Below are positions 1,307 to 14,844 of a stretch of 18,609 bases of DNA, piece by piece (position 1 is the first letter of the stretch; each line of letters starts with the position of its first letter). A model generated the notes under the pieces. It was not told the DNA's origin and did no database searches. It worked only from the letters and a program-made list of their open reading frames with translations. Both the position numbers and the translations under genes were made by a program. This DNA is from a virus (Duplodnaviria > Heunggongvirae > Uroviricota > Caudoviricetes): IMG/VR virus record IMGVR_UViG_2534681878_000012, positions 1 through 18,609 of that record; one strand, written 5' to 3'.

Positions 1307-1477
1307 TTATTCAGGTACAGCGATTACTTTTTTTACCGGGAGGCATTCACCAGAAATTTTTTGCTCGTCTCTTGCCTGGAGGCAGGATTCTTTACTGGCA
1401 TAAATTCCGGTAATCACATTCTGTGATTCACCCGTTATAAGAAAAACCGTCATCATCAGTGCAAATGCTGAAGTCAT
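1307..1477 (-). CDS. ydfD: Small protein with hydrophobic N-terminus (56 aa), YdfD-like position downstream of dicB
   Basis: ORF below the track cutoff, found by manual translation: MTSAFALMMTVFLITGESQNVITGIYASKESCLQARDEQKISGECLPVKKVIAVPE. Its ATG overlaps the dicB stop as ATGA, indicating translational coupling. Confidence 0.45.
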   Translation of the reverse strand: MTSAFALMMTVFLITGESQNVITGIYASKESCLQARDEQKISGECLPVKKVIAVPE

Positions 1478-1662
1478 TGACGTTCTCCGAAAATACCAAG
1501 TTCAAGAAGAGCAATTCGGGAAAGTATGGAATTATCATTGAGCAGATAAGGCTCATATTTCCTCATGTTAATGGCATCTTCAGTAAACTCCCGGTTACTG
1601 AGCAGAACACCAATATCAAAACAACCTTCAGACGTATTAACGTTTGGTAATAACGTTTCCAT
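1474..1662 (-). CDS. dicB: DicB-like cell division inhibitor (62 aa)
   Basis: Internal start of track ORF 1474..1767: METLLPNVNTSEGCFDIGVLLSNREFTEDAINMRK... resembles remembered K-12 DicB. GAGG RBS 8 nt upstream; lies directly downstream of DicF as in Qin. Confidence 0.75.
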   Translation of the reverse strand: METLLPNVNTSEGCFDIGVLLSNREFTEDAINMRKYEPYLLNDNSILSRIALLELGIFGERQ

Positions 1663-1831: not shown

Positions 1832-1889
1832 AAAAAGGGCGGCAGAGCAGCCACGGAGTAAAACTGATACCGCCAAACGTCACCAGAAA
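1832..1889 (-). ncRNA. dicF: DicF small regulatory RNA (ftsZ-targeting antisense sRNA of the dicB operon)
   Basis: Minus-strand sequence tttctggtgacgtttggcggtatcagttttactccgtggctgctctgccgcccttttt matches remembered DicF apart from one base, ends in a GC stem plus U-run, and sits between the ydfA-side genes and dicB. Ends are approximate. Confidence 0.8.
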
Positions 1890-2434
1890 ATTGATAACAG
1901 AGGGCGTTGCAGCGGGGTTGTCACTTAAGCGTATGGTCAACCTGACAACCCGGTGTCCTCAATGGGGAAGGAATAACCCCGCCATACTTACCGCCGCGCC
2001 ATTTCGCGGAGTGCCACAACCGGAAGCGCACGTTCGAAGAAATCTAACGACAAGCCTTCTAAGGGAAGAGCTTCGCCGTACGCTTTCGCGTTATGCACTG
2101 ACTTTTCAGGGAAATATCCTTTCAGTAAACTGTCAGTACCGGATTCTTATCCGTGTCCGGCGCACGACCACACGTGACAGCGTGTTGGTCTCCATTTTTA
2201 ACCCAGAACCTCAATGGAGGATAAAATGCCAAACAAAAAAGAAATCCGCTTATTGAAAAACAGATTGAATGCCTGGTAAATCAACTCAGGCAATCAGGGT
2301 TATTAAAAACTCATTCAGAGTTGAGGCTCACAGAATCAGCATTCGACGATAAATTAAATAATGTCCTTTATAATGGCATTATTGATTTTAATCGTTCTGT
2401 TGGTCGCCGCGGCCCTGCTGGTGTTTCCTTATAA

Positions 2435-3073
2435 TTACCAGTCAATCCAGAGTGGACCGTGTTCAGCGTAAATATAACTGTACACATCCAGATTATATTT
2501 GTGGTCTGTTAAGAACAGGCCGCAAATACATGCCGAAGCTTCCAGTGCAGCGGCTCTGTTACTGAATAACCATGTAGCAACATTCCAGCGTTTTTCTGCA
2601 TCCCAGTCTTTCTCAAGGCCTGATACCATGAAGAAACCGTTAGTGTTGCCATCAAATAATTCTGTTTCCAAATTTTTAAGCAATGCCTGATGGACTCTTG
2701 CCAGGTATTCCGCCGGAATTTCGCCACGAATTCTGATGAGATTGTCATAAACAAACATGTTCCCCGCATATGGCGATTTTTCTTTCTTGTTTTTTAAACC
2801 AGCATCATGAGCAAACTGATCAATTTCTTCTTCCGTTGGTTTCGTATTGATGTTTTGCGCTGTCGTTTCTGCAATTTTATTTGCCACACTCTCTGAGTCG
2901 TGTTTATTTATAGACGCACAGAAATACAATCCGGTAAACGCATCGCGCACATTACGAGCCATATTATCAGTGTCTTTTTTCGTTACCGATTCCAATTCAA
3001 GTTCGTTCAGACGATGACGAAGTGTGTGTGCTGCAATCTCCTGGATTGAAGGAGGTAAATCTTTAAATTCCAT
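2435..3073 (-). CDS. Hypothetical soluble protein (212 aa) in the leftward early operon; function unknown
   Basis: Track ORF 2435..3085; preferred start is the second ATG (MEFKDLPPSIQ...) with a GAGG RBS 6 nt upstream. No TM segments or recognisable motifs. Confidence 0.6.
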   Translation of the reverse strand: MEFKDLPPSIQEIAAHTLRHRLNELELESVTKKDTDNMARNVRDAFTGLYFCASINKHDSESVANKIAETTAQNINTKPTEEEIDQFAHDAGLKNKKEKSPYAGNMFVYDNLIRIRGEIPAEYLARVHQALLKNLETELFDGNTNGFFMVSGLEKDWDAEKRWNVATWLFSNRAAALEASACICGLFLTDHKYNLDVYSYIYAEHGPLWIDW

Positions 3074-3084
3074 CGTCAACCTCA

Positions 3085-3237
3085 TCAGTCAGTGTTTCTG
3101 GCTAACCAGCGACGCGCGCCAGCTTCAGTTTTAAACGTTTTGCTTCTGGTATACGTCATCGCGGTAAACGTGCCGTCCTGATTGGGAAACACGCCACATA
3201 CCAGAGATTCGTTGTTGCCAAGATCGATAGTATCCAT
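3085..3237 (-). CDS. ydfA: YdfA-like small protein (50 aa), first gene of the leftward operon
   Basis: Internal start of track ORF 3085..3393: MDTIDLGNNESLVCGVFPNQDGTFTAMTYTRSKTFKTEAGARRWLARNTD. GAGG RBS 5 nt upstream; its stop overlaps the first ATG of the next gene. Confidence 0.55.
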   Translation of the reverse strand: MDTIDLGNNESLVCGVFPNQDGTFTAMTYTRSKTFKTEAGARRWLARNTD

Positions 3238-3313
3238 GCTGACCTCATTTCCCCTTAACGCCGGGGTAGCGGAACTGTTTGCTGAGAACACCGTGCGGTG
3301 TCTTGATGGAGGT

Positions 3314-3364
3314 AATTTAGTTTTCTCATTATTTTTCGTCAAGGCTTTTTGATGAGAAAACTCA
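3314..3364 (-). promoter_or_regulatory. Leftward early promoter (pL-like, dicB-operon promoter) with two repressor operator palindromes
   Basis: Minus strand reads TTGACG (3337-3342), 17-nt spacer, TAAATT (3314-3319). Perfect palindrome TGAGAAAACTCA at 3353-3364 and an 11/12 copy at 3317-3328 overlapping the spacer and -10. Confidence 0.55.
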
Positions 3365-3429: not shown

Positions 3430-3837
3430 TTATTGATGCTTGTTGCGTTTGCGAGCCTCTAATAGCTCGGTGAACAGGCGATTAAAATTCTCAACGCGGG
3501 CGCGGAGTTCGCTGAGTTGTGCTTGTTGCTCTGATTTAGGAAGTGCGCGATACAAACGCAACATCTCTAACTCATCTTCCGATAAGTCTAAGGCACTATC
3601 GAGTGAAACAGGGGGAGTTGGTGTTTTGTCCTCGTCGCCAAACAGTATCCAGGTTGGTGAACATTGCAATACCTCGGCGAGGCGATGCAAATTTTGCCCG
3701 CGCGGGGCTGTATGGTCACTTTCCCATAATGAAATTGATGAGCCAGATACGCCAGCAGCTTTGCTTAAACCGTTTTGACTTAAGCCTACCTGCTTACGTC
3801 TTTCTCTAATGCGTTGACCTAAAGTTTTCTCGTTCAT
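3430..3837 (-). CDS. dicA: DicA-like HTH (XRE family) prophage repressor, 135 aa, no peptidase domain
   Basis: Internal start MNEKTLGQRIRERRKQVGLSQ... of track ORF 3430..3888; C-terminal ...LQCSPTWILFGDEDK.PTPPV... matches remembered K-12 DicA. Divergent from the cro-like gene. Confidence 0.8.
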   Translation of the reverse strand: MNEKTLGQRIRERRKQVGLSQNGLSKAAGVSGSSISLWESDHTAPRGQNLHRLAEVLQCSPTWILFGDEDKTPTPPVSLDSALDLSEDELEMLRLYRALPKSEQQAQLSELRARVENFNRLFTELLEARKRNKHQ

Positions 3838-3849
3838 ATTTAGATATCT

Positions 3850-3892
3850 TAATAACCCTTGACTTGAGATTCCTTGAGTGATTAGCATTGAG
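3850..3892 (+). promoter_or_regulatory. Rightward early promoter (pR-like) with overlapping operator palindrome
   Basis: TTGACT at 3850-3855, about 18 nt, TAGCAT at 3874-3879; perfect 14-bp palindrome TTGAGAAAACTCAA at 3879-3892 over the -10 and start region, same core as the two leftward sites. Confidence 0.55.
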
Positions 3893-7648: not shown

Positions 7649-8020
7649 GAGAGGTTAACTATGAGGCGCTTCGTGAGGCAGCACAAAACTATCAGTCGAC
7701 GCTGGCGTGGTATCAGGCTACCCCGGACAGCCCAAATGCTGAACGGGATTGTGATGCGGCTCTTGCTGCGTTTAAGCGTCATATCCGTCATCGGGAAGCG
7801 GATATTATCGCTGGTAGCTGGTTTGCTGGATGCGCGGGAAGTTCAATTACCGACTCGCTACGACCTTCGATATGGACACCCGATAAATGCAGATGAGCGA
7901 CATGTCATGATACCTAAAGAAAATGGCAGTTGGCTTTACCTGATTGACCTAGAACACGCATTACGCGTCGCTGGCATTCGCATCAAAGGAGAGGAGCATG
8001 GAAATAAAACCAGAGGATGA
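7645..8020 (+). pseudogene. Ead/Ea22-like gene, copy A, apparently frameshifted and shortened
   Basis: MREVNYEALREAAQ... N-terminus (frame of 7645) shares the Ea22-like motif with copy B; conserved C-terminus ...AGIRIKGEEHGNKTR is in the +1 frame (ends 8020). Frame switch lies near 7810-7830; total span about 125 codons versus 239 in copy B. Confidence 0.5.
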
Positions 8021-8354
8021 GTTAAGCAATATCGTTTTATTTCCGGTAAAAGAGGATGACCCTCGTAATCAGGTTAATTTTCTTTATGAGCCATCGGAAA
8101 GACCATATTGTCATCACGCCTCTGTTCGGGTTGACGAAAAAGAGCGCCAGGTCCGCTGTAAAATCTGCGGTGCGGTTGTGGAGCCGTTTGACTGGATGCT
8201 CTCTGTGGCGAAAAGAGAAACCAGACTGGCAGATGATGTAAGGCTATTGCGCCAGGAGGAACAGGAAAGGCGGAAAAATATAGAAAAGTTAATTCAGATT
8301 GAACGTAACGCGAAAGCGCGGATACGCAGGGCGACAAAATCCAGAACTGAATAA
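7998..8354 (+). CDS. Hypothetical protein with putative zinc ribbon (CHH...CxxC), cassette copy A, 118 aa
   Basis: Track ORF; start lies inside the Ea22-like 3' end; about 95% identical to 9696..10052. Confidence 0.65.
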   Translation: MEIKPEDELSNIVLFPVKEDDPRNQVNFLYEPSERPYCHHASVRVDEKERQVRCKICGAVVEPFDWMLSVAKRETRLADDVRLLRQEEQERRKNIEKLIQIERNAKARIRRATKSRTE

Positions 8355-8404
8355 ATAAATTTAGCGCTGTAAATAAAATCTAATCCTGAACTGGAGGTAT
8401 ATTT

Positions 8405-8617
8405 ATGTTAAATACACAGAAAGCCATTAATGCGGAAAAATATAACGAGTGGGCAAGAAAATTCTCTGAGCAGATTTTTAAAATTACTGGCGATGAGAAT
8501 GCGGCAAAAAATGAATTAGAACCGTGGACACCTGAAGGAAACGCACCAAATTATTGCTGGTGGGAGGTTGATCCGGTTGATGTTGCAAATGAAGCCATGA
8601 GTTACCACAACGATTAA
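8405..8617 (+). CDS. Hypothetical small protein (70 aa), cassette copy A
   Basis: Track ORF with GGAGG RBS; about 88% identical to 10101..10313. Confidence 0.65.
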   Translation: MLNTQKAINAEKYNEWARKFSEQIFKITGDENAAKNELEPWTPEGNAPNYCWWEVDPVDVANEAMSYHND

Positions 8618-8621
8618 TGTC

Positions 8622-8643
8622 AGGAGGCCGCCCGAAAGGGCGG
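8622..8643 (+). promoter_or_regulatory. SD plus GC hairpin with GAAA loop (AGGAGG, CCGCCC-GAAA-GGGCGG) upstream of the 8651 ATG
   Basis: AGGAGG 8622-8627, 6-bp GC stem 8628-8643, ATG at 8651; no U-run, so not a classical terminator. Identical element at 10318-10339. Confidence 0.5.
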
Positions 8644-8650
8644 TAGTTAA

Positions 8651-9002: not shown

Positions 9003-9718
9003 GCGAGATTGACTATCAGGCGCTGCGTGAAGCAGCAGAGAAAGCAACTAAAGGATGCTACATCGTAGGGCATACATCGGGCAATCAGCATGGGAATATA
9101 ACAGGAGTTTTTGTTTGTCAAAAATGGAAAGGAGAGCCCGGTGGCGTAATTGCAGAATGTCATGTTAACTGCCTGGTTGAAACAGATGCTCAGGCTTACG
9201 CAAACGCTGAATTTATTGCTGCCTTTAATCCAAATGTTGCGCTGGCACTACTGGATGAACGGGAAAGAAACCAGCAATACATCAAATCACGCGACCAGGA
9301 GAACGAGGAGATTGCGCTTACGGAAGGGAAGCTGCTAATCGAAAACGGCCGGCTTGTTGCCGATACGCTACGCCACTTAGCTGATAACGAAATCGACTCT
9401 GATTATTTTGCTATCACCTCAACGAATGAGAACGGTACTGAAATTGATCATGAGATGGCTATTACCGATTACGCACTGCAAGCTGCCGGAACTGTAGACG
9501 AATTGGTTGCGGCGTTGGAATCCGCAGAGAAGCGCATTGCAGAACTGGAAGCACGGGAAATATCGCTCCCAGAACGTAGCAGCATGCTTCATCGAACAGA
9601 TTTTCACGATGATTACCAAACGGTAATGGCATACAAAGTTTCTGAAGTCATCGCTGCAATCCGCGCCGCTGGCATTCGCATCAAAGGAGAGGAGCATGGA
9701 AATAAAACCAGAAGATGA
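8999..9718 (+). CDS. Ead/Ea22-like family protein, copy B (239 aa, intact)
   Basis: N-terminal MSEIDYQALREAAEKA... and C-terminal ...AGIRIKGEEHGNKTRR typical of the family; track ORF. Confidence 0.7.
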   Translation: MSEIDYQALREAAEKATKGCYIVGHTSGNQHGNITGVFVCQKWKGEPGGVIAECHVNCLVETDAQAYANAEFIAAFNPNVALALLDERERNQQYIKSRDQENEEIALTEGKLLIENGRLVADTLRHLADNEIDSDYFAITSTNENGTEIDHEMAITDYALQAAGTVDELVAALESAEKRIAELEAREISLPERSSMLHRTDFHDDYQTVMAYKVSEVIAAIRAAGIRIKGEEHGNKTRR

Positions 9719-10052
9719 GTTAAGCAATATCGTTTTATTTCCGGTAAAAGAGGATGACCCACGTAATCAGGTTAATTTTCTCTATGAGCCATCGGAAAGA
9801 CCATATTGCCATCACGCCTCTGTCCGGGTTGACGAAAAAGAGCGTCAGGTCCGCTGTAAAATCTGCGGTGCAGTTGTGGAGCCATTTGACTGGATGCTCT
9901 CTGTGGCGAAAAGAGAAACCAGACTGGCAGATGATGTAAGGATCTTGCGCCAGGAGGAACGGGAAAGGCGGAGAAATATAGAAAAGCTAATTCAGATTGA
10001 GCGTAACGTGAAAGCGCGGATACGCAGGGTGACAAAATCCAGAACTGAATAA
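9696..10052 (+). CDS. Hypothetical protein with putative zinc ribbon, cassette copy B, 118 aa
   Basis: Paralog of 7998..8354; same overlap with the Ea22-like 3' end. Confidence 0.65.
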   Translation: MEIKPEDELSNIVLFPVKEDDPRNQVNFLYEPSERPYCHHASVRVDEKERQVRCKICGAVVEPFDWMLSVAKRETRLADDVRILRQEERERRRNIEKLIQIERNVKARIRRVTKSRTE

Positions 10053-10100
10053 TTAAATTTAGCTCTGTTAAAAATTTAATCCTTAACCGGAGGTATATCA

Positions 10101-10313
10101 ATGTCAAACGCACAGAAAGTTATTAACGCTGAAAAATATAACGAGTGGGTGAAAAAGTTCTCAGAGCAGATTTTTAAAATTACTGGCGACGAGAATGCGG
10201 CAAAAAATGAATTAGAGCCGTGGACACCTGAAGGTGTCGACCCAAATTATTGCTGGTGGGATGTTGATCCAGTTGATGCTGCAAATGAAGCTATGAGTTA
10301 TCACAACGATTAA
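10101..10313 (+). CDS. Hypothetical small protein (70 aa), cassette copy B
   Basis: Paralog of 8405..8617 with GGAGG RBS. Confidence 0.65.
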   Translation: MSNAQKVINAEKYNEWVKKFSEQIFKITGDENAAKNELEPWTPEGVDPNYCWWDVDPVDAANEAMSYHND

Positions 10314-10317
10314 TGTC

Positions 10318-10339
10318 AGGAGGCCGCCCGAAAGGGCGG
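10318..10339 (+). promoter_or_regulatory. Second copy of the SD plus GAAA-loop hairpin, followed by a 4-codon mini-ORF
   Basis: Same sequence as 8622-8643; ATG at 10342 opens MKSD-stop (10342..10356). Confidence 0.45.
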
Positions 10340-10513
10340 TAATGAAAAGTGACTGAATTAACCAAAGAGAAATTAATCGAAGAAGCCAAATTAAAAATAG
10401 CGATTGCGAAATGCTACCCCAATTCAGGGATGGCACGGGTATAGGGCGAGTTATTCAAAATTGCACTGGCATAGCTGGAAGCAGATCCAGTTAAACGAGT
10501 TAACTCAGATCAG

Positions 10514-11635: not shown

Positions 11636-11848
11636 ATGCTCTACACACGTAGGTTAGCCTCTTACGTGCCGAAAGGCAAGGAGAAGCAGGCTATGAAGCA
11701 GCAAAAGGCGATGCTAATCGCCCTGATCGTCATCTGTTTAACCGTCATAGTGACGGCACTGGTAACGAGGAAAGACCTCTGCGAGGTACGAATCCGAACC
11801 GGCCAGACGGAGGTCGCTGTCTTCACAGCTTACGAACCTGAGGAGTAA
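11636..11848 (+). CDS. hokD: Hok/Gef-family type I toxin (51-aa core from 11693) with in-frame Mok-like N-terminal extension
   Basis: Core MKQQKAMLIALIVICLTVIVTALVTRKDLCEVRIRTGQTEVAVFTAYEPEE matches remembered HokD/RelF. Structured leader (9-bp inverted repeat 11536-11544 / 11563-11571) and 3' stem-loop as in hok mRNAs. Confidence 0.8.
   Translation: MLYTRRLASYVPKGKEKQAMKQQKAMLIALIVICLTVIVTALVTRKDLCEVRIRTGQTEVAVFTAYEPEE
11644..11679 (-). promoter_or_regulatory. Putative Sok-like antisense RNA promoter opposite the mok/hok start
   Basis: Minus strand reads TTGCCT (11674-11679), 17 nt, TAACCT (11651-11656); transcription would run leftward across the 11636 start. Inferred by analogy with hok/sok. 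Confidence 0.35.
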
Positions 11849-11855
11849 GAGACCT

Positions 11856-11877
11856 GGCGAGGGAGAAATCCCTCGCC
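11856..11877 (+). other. Perfect 9-bp stem-loop with GAAA loop just after the hok stop
   Basis: GGCGAGGGA-GAAA-TCCCTCGCC with no U-run; a weaker hairpin plus T-rich tract follows at about 11919-11945. Confidence 0.5.
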
Positions 11878-11950
11878 ACCTCTGATGTGTCAGGCATCCT
11901 CAACGCACCCGCACTTAACCTGCTTCGGCGGGTTTTGTTGTATTAGAATA

Positions 11951-12268
11951 TCAGGATATTACCTGGATCCCGTTTTTCTCGACAACTGAAAGAAGCCGAA
12001 GAGCTGCACCTCCCGGGCGTTTCACTCCTCGTTCCCAGTCTGATATCAGGTTTTTACTGACGTTGAGGTATCTGGCAAAAACAGGTTGAGACAGATGCTC
12101 TCGTTCTCGCAGTGCACGGATCCTTTCCGGAGACATTACCGGCGCAGGCTGAAGACAAGTTTCATCGAATTCGCGCATAGTTTGTTTTGTGATTGCACCG
12201 ATATCATGGAGTGACTCCATCATTTCATGTACAGATGCAAGTGCATCACTGCGGTAATTTTTACTCAT
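11951..12268 (-). CDS. HTH (XRE-like) antitoxin, HigA-2-like architecture (C-terminal HTH), 105 aa
   Basis: Track ORF; C-terminal ...SQPVFARYLNVSKNLISDWERGVKRP... is HTH-like; lies downstream of and overlaps the toxin by 8 nt. Confidence 0.65.
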   Translation of the reverse strand: MSKNYRSDALASVHEMMESLHDIGAITKQTMREFDETCLQPAPVMSPERIRALREREHLSQPVFARYLNVSKNLISDWERGVKRPGGAALRLLSVVEKNGIQVIS

Positions 12269-12632
12269 TGGGTACCTCCGTGAACTGGCCTTGTTGAATC
12301 AATTGTGCCAGCTGTTCATCAGTAAGATTGAGGACATGGGGAGCGGCTTTTCGAAAAGCATTTTCCTCTATAGCAGTGATATTCTCTCGTTCATTCTTTG
12401 CGTATGCGTAGATGAAAAAGGCTTTTTCTGCAACGCGGTAAAAAATTATTGTCCGGTAACCGCCTGATTTTCCGCCACCACTTCGGGCTAATCTTTGTTT
12501 AATGACACCACTACCCAAATTTGCGGATATGATCCCCTTATCGGCCTGCTCCACGATTTTGCGCAGCGATTTATCGGAAATCCGATGTTTTCGGGCGAAA
12601 CGTTCAAACCAGGCGTTTTTGAAAATTCGCAT
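12261..12632 (-). CDS. RelE/ParE-superfamily toxin, HigB-2-like, 123 aa
   Basis: Motif ...RLARSGGGKSGGYRTIIFYRVAEKAFFIYAYAKNERENI... resembles remembered Vibrio HigB-2; toxin-first order is typical of HigBA modules. Confidence 0.65.
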   Translation of the reverse strand: MRIFKNAWFERFARKHRISDKSLRKIVEQADKGIISANLGSGVIKQRLARSGGGKSGGYRTIIFYRVAEKAFFIYAYAKNERENITAIEENAFRKAAPHVLNLTDEQLAQLIQQGQFTEVPNE

Positions 12633-12652
12633 ACCTGCCTCTGCATTTTATA

Positions 12653-14469: not shown

Positions 14470-14844
14470 ATGCCCATAGATTTGGTTTTACCTTACCCGC
14501 CAACGGTGAACACCTACTGGCGACGTCGTGGCAGCACATATTTTATCTCGGAGGAGGGAAAGCGTTATCGCCGGGCTGTGGCGCTTATTGTTCGCCAGCA
14601 GCGGCTGAAATTAATCCTGTCCGGAAGGCTGGCGATAAAGGTGATTGCAGAGCCACCGGATAAGCGTCGTCGCGACCTGGACAATATCCTGAAAGCACCG
14701 CTGGATGCGCTGACGCATGCGGGAGTGTTAATGGACGATGAGCAGTTTGATGAAATCAATATCGTTCGTGGTCAGCCAGTATCTGGTGGACGTCTGGGGG
14801 TGAAGATTTACCCCATAATGCTTGAAGGGCAGGTCAAAAAATGA
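14470..14844 (+). CDS. rusA: RusA Holliday junction resolvase
   Basis: ...LPYPPTVNTYW...PDKRRRDLDNILKAPLDALTHAGVLMDDEQ... matches remembered RusA catalytic region; AAGAGG RBS; lies just upstream of Q. Confidence 0.8.
   Translation: MPIDLVLPYPPTVNTYWRRRGSTYFISEEGKRYRRAVALIVRQQRLKLILSGRLAIKVIAEPPDKRRRDLDNILKAPLDALTHAGVLMDDEQFDEINIVRGQPVSGGRLGVKIYPIMLEGQVKK

Follow-up and report, generated by a model that had tools for sequence, protein, structure and literature searches.

A co-inherited pair of convergent genes in a variable slot of the dicBF-type operon of an Escherichia coli prophage

The window analyzed here is the whole 18,609-nucleotide (nt) stretch of the caudoviricete record IMGVR_UViG_2534681878_000012. 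The gene in question, hereafter the target, lies at 2435..3073 on the minus strand and encodes a protein of 212 amino acids (aa). The original prediction placed it in the slot between a repressor-proximal ydfA-like gene and the DicF/dicB segment of the leftward operon. This assignment holds: the open reading frame (ORF), the ribosome-binding site, the RefSeq coding sequence (CDS) and the ratio of nonsynonymous to synonymous substitution rates (dN/dS) agree on the gene, and its neighbors were verified by Pfam, Rfam and blastp. On the opposite strand lies a partner ORF of 69 aa (2226..2434, plus strand), whose stop abuts that of the target. The C-terminal domain of the target and this small ORF are strictly co-inherited. 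Neither this ORF, the modular build of the protein nor the series of gene pairs in the slot figured in the original prediction.

The target starts at the ATG at 3073 and stops at 2435-2437, and GAGG is found 6 nt 5' of the start codon. An alternative in-frame ATG at 3085, which is overlapped by the stop of the ydfA-like gene (TGATG), would give a 216-aa version. RefSeq holds an identical 639-nt CDS as WP_000394548.1, labelled 'hypothetical protein'. The protein matches PHROG 2151 end to end (residues 1-212 against profile positions 1-212 of 212, E 1.8e-147); the gene family is already catalogued there, as hypothetical. The dN/dS of the C-terminal part is 0.18-0.26 between variants, which shows that the ORF is coding. 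The target is a real gene on which purifying selection acts. Its DNA is 100% identical across many Shiga toxin-producing E. coli (STEC) genomes, and at least 80% of it is present in 567 of 5426 complete E. coli genomes (about 10%), mainly O157, O26, O103, O111, O121 and O145 STEC. Relatives are confined to Escherichia (coli, albertii and marmotae) and Salmonella. An exhaustive search of representatives returned full-length relatives in one 50%-identity cluster only, plus Salmonella proteins that share the C-terminal domain; a 548-aa repeat protein (P0133) was discarded as a low-complexity chance match. The full gene is in none of 50,697 deposited phage genomes searched by tblastn, where the N-terminal module alone was matched.

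The partner ORF is recorded in RefSeq as WP_001133037.1, on the strand opposite the target and ending exactly at the target's end. It matches PHROG 4274 (E 1.2e-51). Both PHROG families are without function, and their pairing is unrecorded in the libraries used. A GGAGG lies six bases 5' of its ATG. Its dN/dS is 0.03-0.27, its Salmonella homolog is 52% identical, and it is under purifying selection. A spurious antisense ORF was rejected on the basis of these dN/dS values, the strong ribosome-binding site and the conservation into Salmonella. The protein is hydrophilic, and we rejected it as a type I toxin. In the AlphaFold2 (AF2) model of the partner, which has a predicted local distance difference test (pLDDT) score of 82, helices 8-24 and 37-60 form a hairpin, and the basic tail, GRRGPAG, is disordered. 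No helix-turn-helix (HTH) or ribbon-helix-helix (RHH) motif is recognizable in it, and its fold matches are to generic helical hairpins only. The charges of the two proteins are complementary, with isoelectric points (pI) of 5.2 for the target and 9.7 for the partner. A scan of genome contigs for the partner gave no confirmed locus in a collection that holds one genome per species.

The copy of the partner in the window carries a 1-nt deletion (A6 at 2236-2241 instead of A7), giving a 17-aa truncation. A6 occurs in only 4 of about 509 near-identical complete genomes of E. coli (O26 RM8426, O145 RM12581, RM13514 and RM12275-C1), and about 99% have A7. The partner matches of seven IMG/VR loci begin at residue 4 in tblastn, suggesting the same A6 state. 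Compared with E. coli O157 FDAARGOS_293 (NZ_CP022050.2), the window shows 99.9% identity, with eight substitutions and six single-base indels (at 1089, 1324, 2066, 2235, 5205 and 15206); five of the six shorten homopolymers in the window. Given the rarity of A6 and the other homopolymer shortenings, the frameshift is probably an assembly error. A biologically meaningful frameshift was rejected in view of the five other single-base indels, four of them homopolymer shortenings, and the near-universal A7. The window looks like an unpolished long-read assembly. Its indels also split the recE-type exonuclease into several ORFs (region 1-1200) and leave the DUF1482/ydfD-like gene (1307-1477) shorter than its 189 nt in NZ_CP022050.2.

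The pairing was followed through IMG/VR and into Salmonella. All 65 of the 65 IMG/VR loci with the small ORF also carry the target, and 73 of the 79 target loci hold the small ORF, typically with abutting stops. Three of the six exceptions are at a contig end or have a truncated target; the other three (L143, L144 and L148) carry an internal deletion of the small ORF that leaves the target intact. Among 54 E. coli haplotypes (1431 pairs), we counted as discordant any haplotype pair that was near-identical in one part and diverged in the other. The C-terminal domain and the small ORF were discordant in 0 of the 1431 pairs. For comparison, there were 12 discordances between the N- and C-terminal parts of the target, 122 between ydfA and the N-terminal module and 130 between the small ORF and its leader. 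The Salmonella homologs are about 30% identical in the C-terminal domain. The Salmonella pairs are convergent too, overlap by 11-53 nt and occupy about six chromosomal sites, where they follow cox, not ydfA, in a P2-like integrase/repressor/cox switch. The C-terminal domain keeps its partner when joined to the E. coli N-terminal module, to a different Salmonella N-terminal domain or to an inserted XRE HTH (286-300 aa). A C-terminal-domain-only ORF of about 130 aa without any N-terminal domain (L236-238) still has the partner.

In those three Salmonella enterica loci, two slot-type cassettes apparently stand in tandem. The first consists of the C-terminal-domain-only ORF and the 69-aa partner. 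The second has a 119-aa gene of the MEFKDLP type with a convergent leader and an MSEQELKL-type reverse ORF.

The target occupies a slot whose contents vary. Our survey comprised 80 loci fetched with a YdfA query, 51 of them with a DicF match downstream, plus type-A loci. Between ydfA and DicF we observed eight or more alternatives, ydfB/ydfC and an empty state among them. The gene is accordingly not a core component of all related prophages, and searches of Pfam, PHROG, NCBIfam, PDB and predicted folds gave no homology to a housekeeping phage protein. Forward genes of 106, 112-119, 122, 124, 133 and 212 aa begin with the same N-terminal module and then diverge. The type of their C-terminal end corresponds nearly one-to-one to the type of reverse ORF, over at least six types. 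The 212-aa protein is paired with the 69-aa ORF (MPNK...), forward proteins of 112-119 aa with a 64-aa ORF (MSEQELKL...), the 133-aa protein with a 92-aa ORF (MDKKQIEAL...), the 106-aa protein with a 91-aa ORF (MSTENDEI...) and the 122-aa protein with a 100-aa ORF; the 124-aa protein has no reverse ORF or one of 73 aa. No Pfam match was found for the alternative slot cargo scanned, the alternative forward proteins having been scanned with Pfam only.

Some slots (L181, L174 and L185) have, by mechanical ORF calls only, no MEFKDLP forward gene and a long reverse ORF instead. One such ORF is 148 aa long with hydrophobic stretches, and the other reaches up to 249 aa and has CPKC...C..C cysteine pairs. 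Neither matches Pfam or PADLOC.

We tentatively favor, at somewhat short of an even chance, the view that the pair joins an induction-expressed effector to a cognate partner transcribed from the other strand, the latter being most likely an inhibitor or a regulator. The same survey bears on a different account, which we think doubtful but worth serious weight, in which the two genes are independent neighbors. The forward gene would then be an early lytic accessory protein of the kil/ral/ea class and the reverse gene a lysogen-expressed moron on a plug-in promoter and leader. Forward-only slots (K-12 ydfB/ydfC and the 124-aa type) and apparently reverse-only slots agree with this, as do the leader common to many unrelated reverse ORFs, the survival of the forward gene after loss of the reverse gene, and the N-module proteins that stand in Stx2a phages with no adjacent reverse gene annotated. 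Independence is harder to reconcile with the near one-to-one correspondence of types, with the absence of any discordance between C-terminal domain and small ORF although breakpoints occur on both sides, and with a pairing that is kept at about 30% identity and across three different N-terminal configurations.

The reverse ORF is preceded by a structured 5' leader (2135..2225, plus strand) that is conserved from E. coli to Salmonella. It comprises a strong hairpin, HP1 (2136-2163), a second hairpin, HP2 (2166-2190), which occurs in three sequence families at the same position, and the anti-Shine-Dalgarno element CUCCAU (2190-2195). This element pairs with AUGGAG (2214-2219), which overlaps the Shine-Dalgarno sequence GGAGG (2216-2220). 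HP1, HP2, CUCCAU and the start codon stand in this order before every reverse ORF in both E. coli and Salmonella. RNAalifold recovers HP1 and the anti-Shine-Dalgarno/Shine-Dalgarno helix, in which 5 of 25 sequences show a compensatory change from AU to UA; folded singly, nearly all 30 variants show a hairpin at the HP2 position. The minimum free energies of the sense strand are usually below those of the antisense, and a U-G wobble in HP1 favors the strand of the reverse ORF. As judged from these predicted structures, the leader can sequester the Shine-Dalgarno sequence of the reverse genes. A -10-like hexamer, TAAACT at 7 nt in the window, lies 7-8 nt 5' of HP1, as part of a putative reverse promoter. 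K-12 keeps the HP1 and HP2 part of the leader without a reverse ORF. Searches of Rfam at gathering and E-value thresholds returned DicF only, and the leader matches no family there.

The flanking genes place the target in a repressor-controlled early-left operon of the dicBF type, as its second gene by position. The repressor (3430..3837, minus strand; 135 aa) is of the DicA type, with a Pfam HTH_3 domain and 58% identity to K-12 DicA in blastp. Its longest ORF, 3430-3888, would encode 152 aa; the internal start at 3837 is backed by RefSeq and by the DicA alignment. Between the repressor and the target are a 192-nt promoter region and the ydfA-like gene (DUF1391, E 1.3e-28; 3085..3237, minus strand; 50 aa), the first gene of the operon. 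We placed the equivalent of dicBp at a promoter-like site, TTGACG-17-TAAATT (3314..3342, minus strand). The consensus scan is a weak basis for this site; homology to K-12 starts just downstream of it, at 3308. Beyond the target follow, all on the minus strand, a conserved untranslated DicF leader of about 280 nt (1889..2166), which is common to all slot types and K-12, the DicF small RNA (sRNA; 1837..1888; Rfam RF00039, 75 bits, E 8e-16), dicB (1474..1662; 62 aa; Pfam DicB E 2.7e-36, NCBIfam NF049927) and a DUF1482/ydfD-like gene.

Blastn against K-12 shows flanks that are 91-93% identical (3094-3308 and 1558-2166) around an unrelated interior. This exchangeable cassette (2167..3093) is absent from K-12 Qin, where the same slot holds only ydfB (42 aa) and ydfC (72 aa), in agreement with the original prediction. 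The Qin slot is thus alike in its position between ydfA and the DicF leader and in belonging to a DicA-type repressed polycistronic operon that leads to DicF and DicB. It differs in having two small forward genes and no reverse ORF, and the target has no sequence similarity to YdfB or YdfC; homology to either was rejected. In K-12, the dicBF operon is transcribed from dicBp upstream of ydfA under repression by DicA, and the DicF leader is processed by RNases III and E (PMC10448788). We take the operon position of the target from homology to K-12, the transcription data being those of the K-12 work. Since the target lies downstream of the dicBp equivalent in an operon repressed by a DicA-type protein, its position predicts an early, induction-expressed gene that is not co-transcribed with the repressor in lysogens.

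The DicF leader is about 76-81% identical in loci of P2-like Salmonella prophages without DicF. Four of these loci (L149, L151, L154 and L004) show by eye another terminator-like hairpin with a T-run (GCGGG...CCCGC TTTTTT) at the DicF position, which may be a DicF-analogous 3' sRNA with another seed.

This position separates the target from rexAB, which lysogens transcribe together with cI. RexB and SieB are proteins of the membrane. The original prediction had called the slot equivalent to that of lambda rexAB or P22 sieB. What the target shares with rexAB and with P22 and lambda sieB is its nature as an accessory gene and its place in the immunity-proximal leftward region of lambdoid prophages. 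The equivalence itself fails: the target lies in the repressed early operon, its product is soluble and acidic with no membrane segment, and searches of Pfam, PADLOC and NCBIfam gave no homology to RexA, RexB or SieB. A membrane exclusion protein was rejected for the same solubility.

The idea of accessory cargo behind this comparison fared better, in that the slot is accessory and variable. Its exclusion or defense part gained no support from PADLOC or from the operon position, and an anti-phage gene or pair carried as prophage cargo, acting constitutively through the reverse gene or in a derepressed subpopulation as DicB does, seems to us improbable. A variable slot with uncharacterized cargo only and the enrichment of the pair in poly-lysogenic STEC would fit it. 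So would DicB of the same operon, which reportedly gives protection against phages using ManYZ (PMC6832061). Against this, not one family of PADLOC-DB 2.0 (5027 models) matched the target or its neighbors at E up to 1, and neither the partner nor five alternative reverse ORFs gave a significant match. The 212-aa gene also sits behind a repressed promoter, and its product has none of the hallmarks usual in defense proteins, such as a membrane segment, a nuclease, an NTPase or another effector signature.

The product of the target is, as had been predicted, soluble (pI 5.2, grand average of hydropathy -0.48) and without a recognizable motif. Pfam, NCBIfam and PADLOC gave no informative match, and sequence searches of the PDB with the single protein and with a profile of the C-terminal domain (E up to 10) returned nothing. 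Its first part is a helical module (aa 1-50, MEFKDLP...NVRDAFTGLY; 2924..3073, minus strand), with helices 8-24 and 32-55 in the AF2 model. This module is common to most forward genes of the slot and also starts small early-left proteins, such as the 147-aa protein of Stx2a phages including PA2. PHROGs 1363, 9419, 6937 and 33007 match only aa 1-75 of the target. An acidic linker follows (aa 51-98; 2780..2923, minus strand; pI 4.7), with two short helices at pLDDT 57-69. The C-terminal alpha/beta domain (aa 99-212; 2438..2779, minus strand; pLDDT 75-91) has the element order b-b-a-b-b-a-b in the AF2 model, followed by an aromatic tail of low AF2 confidence. Its invariant residues include Y109, G117, P120, Y123, F140-D141-G142, N145-G146, W168 and E178.

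The remote homology and structure searches proposed earlier yielded PHROG 2151 and the Salmonella relatives of the C-terminal domain, and otherwise generic fold matches only. These relatives are solely Salmonella prophage proteins (P0143, P0155-P0160 and P0139; 206-300 aa, about 30% identity). The best fold matches of the C-terminal domain are ACT, the ArgR C-terminal domain and eIF1/SUI1, with scores at the level of a generic two-layer sandwich, and Foldseek against BFVD gave no match at E <= 0.001. The Pfam scan (E up to 1) did not return SUI1 (PF01253). The resemblance to the small alpha/beta domains of SUI1/eIF1 (YciH) and ACT, which has no sequence signal in Pfam or in the PDB profile search, is a lead from the model and not a classification.

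These folds, being regulatory or binding folds, bear on a third account, in which the two genes form a regulatory pair acting on the lysis-lysogeny switch or on dicBF. The small protein or the antisense transcript would damp the early-left operon, and the 212-aa protein would antagonize it or sense a signal through its ACT- or SUI1-like domain. We consider this improbable, although the pair always adjoins the immunity switch, after ydfA or cox, an XRE HTH is joined to the C-terminal domain in some Salmonella relatives, the tail of the small protein is basic, and the two convergent transcripts are complementary throughout, no terminator separating the genes. The 212-aa protein has no DNA-binding motif and the small protein no recognizable HTH or RHH. 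A polymorphic series of unrelated pairs is unexpected for core regulation, and K-12 Qin regulates dicBF without the pair (PMC10448788).

We return to the reading as an effector with a cognate partner. The cassette would consist of two genes in the immediate-early repressor-controlled operon of DicA-type lambdoid prophages and of Salmonella prophages with a P2-like int/C/cox switch. Upon derepression, transcription from the dicBp equivalent would run through ydfA, the 212-aa gene, the DicF leader, DicF and dicB. The forward product would be a soluble acidic two-module protein whose type-specific C-terminal domain is the presumed working part, acting on a host or phage target. The reverse transcript would come from its own weak putative promoter, with a leader that hides the Shine-Dalgarno sequence. 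The 69-aa basic protein would be the cognate partner, neutralizing or tuning the effector in the lysogen. Because no terminator separates the two genes, the early transcript can reach DicF only by running antisense across the small one. After induction, this strong antisense transcription would shut the partner gene down. The physical interaction, the effector activity, the direction of regulation and the reverse promoter are points that we infer. The scheme is supported by the co-occurrence of the pair, a pairing kept to Salmonella, its independence of the N-terminus, the recombination pattern and the cognate series; further support comes from selection on both ORFs, the complementary charges, the leader helix and the K-12-like operon.

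Several observations weigh against it. The forward gene is intact in the three loci where the partner is internally deleted, and also where the partner has the A6 frameshift (the window, the 4 complete genomes and several IMG/VR loci); the partner is therefore dispensable under repression of the operon. A reverse ORF is usually missing from the 124-aa slot type, and some slots apparently have the reverse ORF only (148 aa, or up to 249 aa), from which it follows that the reverse platform can hold stand-alone cargo. The reverse promoter agrees with the consensus at 8 of 12 positions and was missed by the promoter scan. Physical linkage alone favors co-inheritance in a cassette of about 850 bp, and the adjacent DicF-type leader came along in Salmonella, so that some of the conservation is due to block transfer. 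No toxin-like or enzymatic motif was recognizable in Pfam, NCBIfam, PADLOC, PDB or fold searches.

Among known systems, the closest analogy in layout is the colicin operon. Pore-forming colicins have a repressed colicin gene, an oppositely oriented immunity gene and a downstream lysis gene. The slot resembles this in having a repressor-controlled gene (a putative effector here), a small convergent gene directly after it and lysis or host-damaging genes downstream, namely DicF, DicB and a DUF1482/YdfD-like lysis protein. There is no similarity in sequence or fold, the target is not secreted, and colicin immunity proteins are membrane proteins whereas the partner is soluble and basic. In the polymorphic toxins CdiA-CT/CdiI and Rhs-CT/RhsI, the N-terminal part is conserved, the C-terminal domain varies and the matching small gene follows directly downstream. 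The slot shares a conserved N-terminus, a variable C-terminus, a cognate small gene and breakpoints at the N/C junction. It departs from them in its short forward proteins of only 106-212 aa, which lack any domain for secretion or delivery, in the opposite orientation of the partner gene and in its place within the early operon of a phage. Pfam, PDB and fold searches also revealed no toxin domain of a known kind. Type II toxin-antitoxin systems are co-directional bicistronic operons with an autoregulating antitoxin; the genes of the present pair are convergent, with abutting or overlapping 3' ends, an arrangement unlike that one.

A wider proposal is that the ydfA-to-DicF slot and the cox-proximal slots of Salmonella together hold a so far undescribed polymorphic effector/cognate-partner system of temperate phages. 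We put this forward as unlikely. A common N-terminal module would carry interchangeable C-terminal effectors, made at the start of induction or infection, and opposite-strand antidotes would be expressed from a shared riboregulated leader. If true, it could determine how encounters of related prophages, co-resident or superinfecting, end in poly-lysogenic STEC (kin-specific immunity), or it could enforce commitment to lysis. Should the pairs turn out to be effector/antidote sets, they would make up a new class of polymorphic systems borne by phages; should they not, the common leader is still a reusable expression platform for prophage cargo. The slot has a bearing on the control of early gene products by co-resident lambdoid prophages, or on competition among them. 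It also offers an experimental handle of twelve small proteins, swaps between cognate and non-cognate partners, and a single leader open to mutation. Three features appear to be undescribed: the convergent partner as an obligate companion, the polymorphic series of modular proteins and the structured leader that the reverse genes share. Our literature search gave no paper on the accession numbers, on 'Ybl81' or on the PHROG ids, nor on these three features; a paper on the prophage sRNA svsR was unrelated.

Some further features of these prophages were observed. Two Salmonella prophages with the homologous pair encode a C4 antisense RNA (Rfam RF01695, 74-77 bits; L149 10674-10761 and L151 10582-10669), and these prophages also hold P4-epsilon-like 'Derepression' and Phage_ASH genes. 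In the early-right region of the window, a direct repeat of 688 bp with 92% identity (7958-8645 and 9656-10341) covers ead/Ea22-like genes and the hypothetical genes that follow them, which are annotated twice in NZ_CP022050.2. At about 11690-12640 of the window (14696-15635 in the L153 annotation) are the type I toxin gene hokD and a RelE/ParE toxin with an HTH antitoxin. The prophage thus holds at least two conventional toxin-antitoxin modules besides the 212-aa/69-aa pair.

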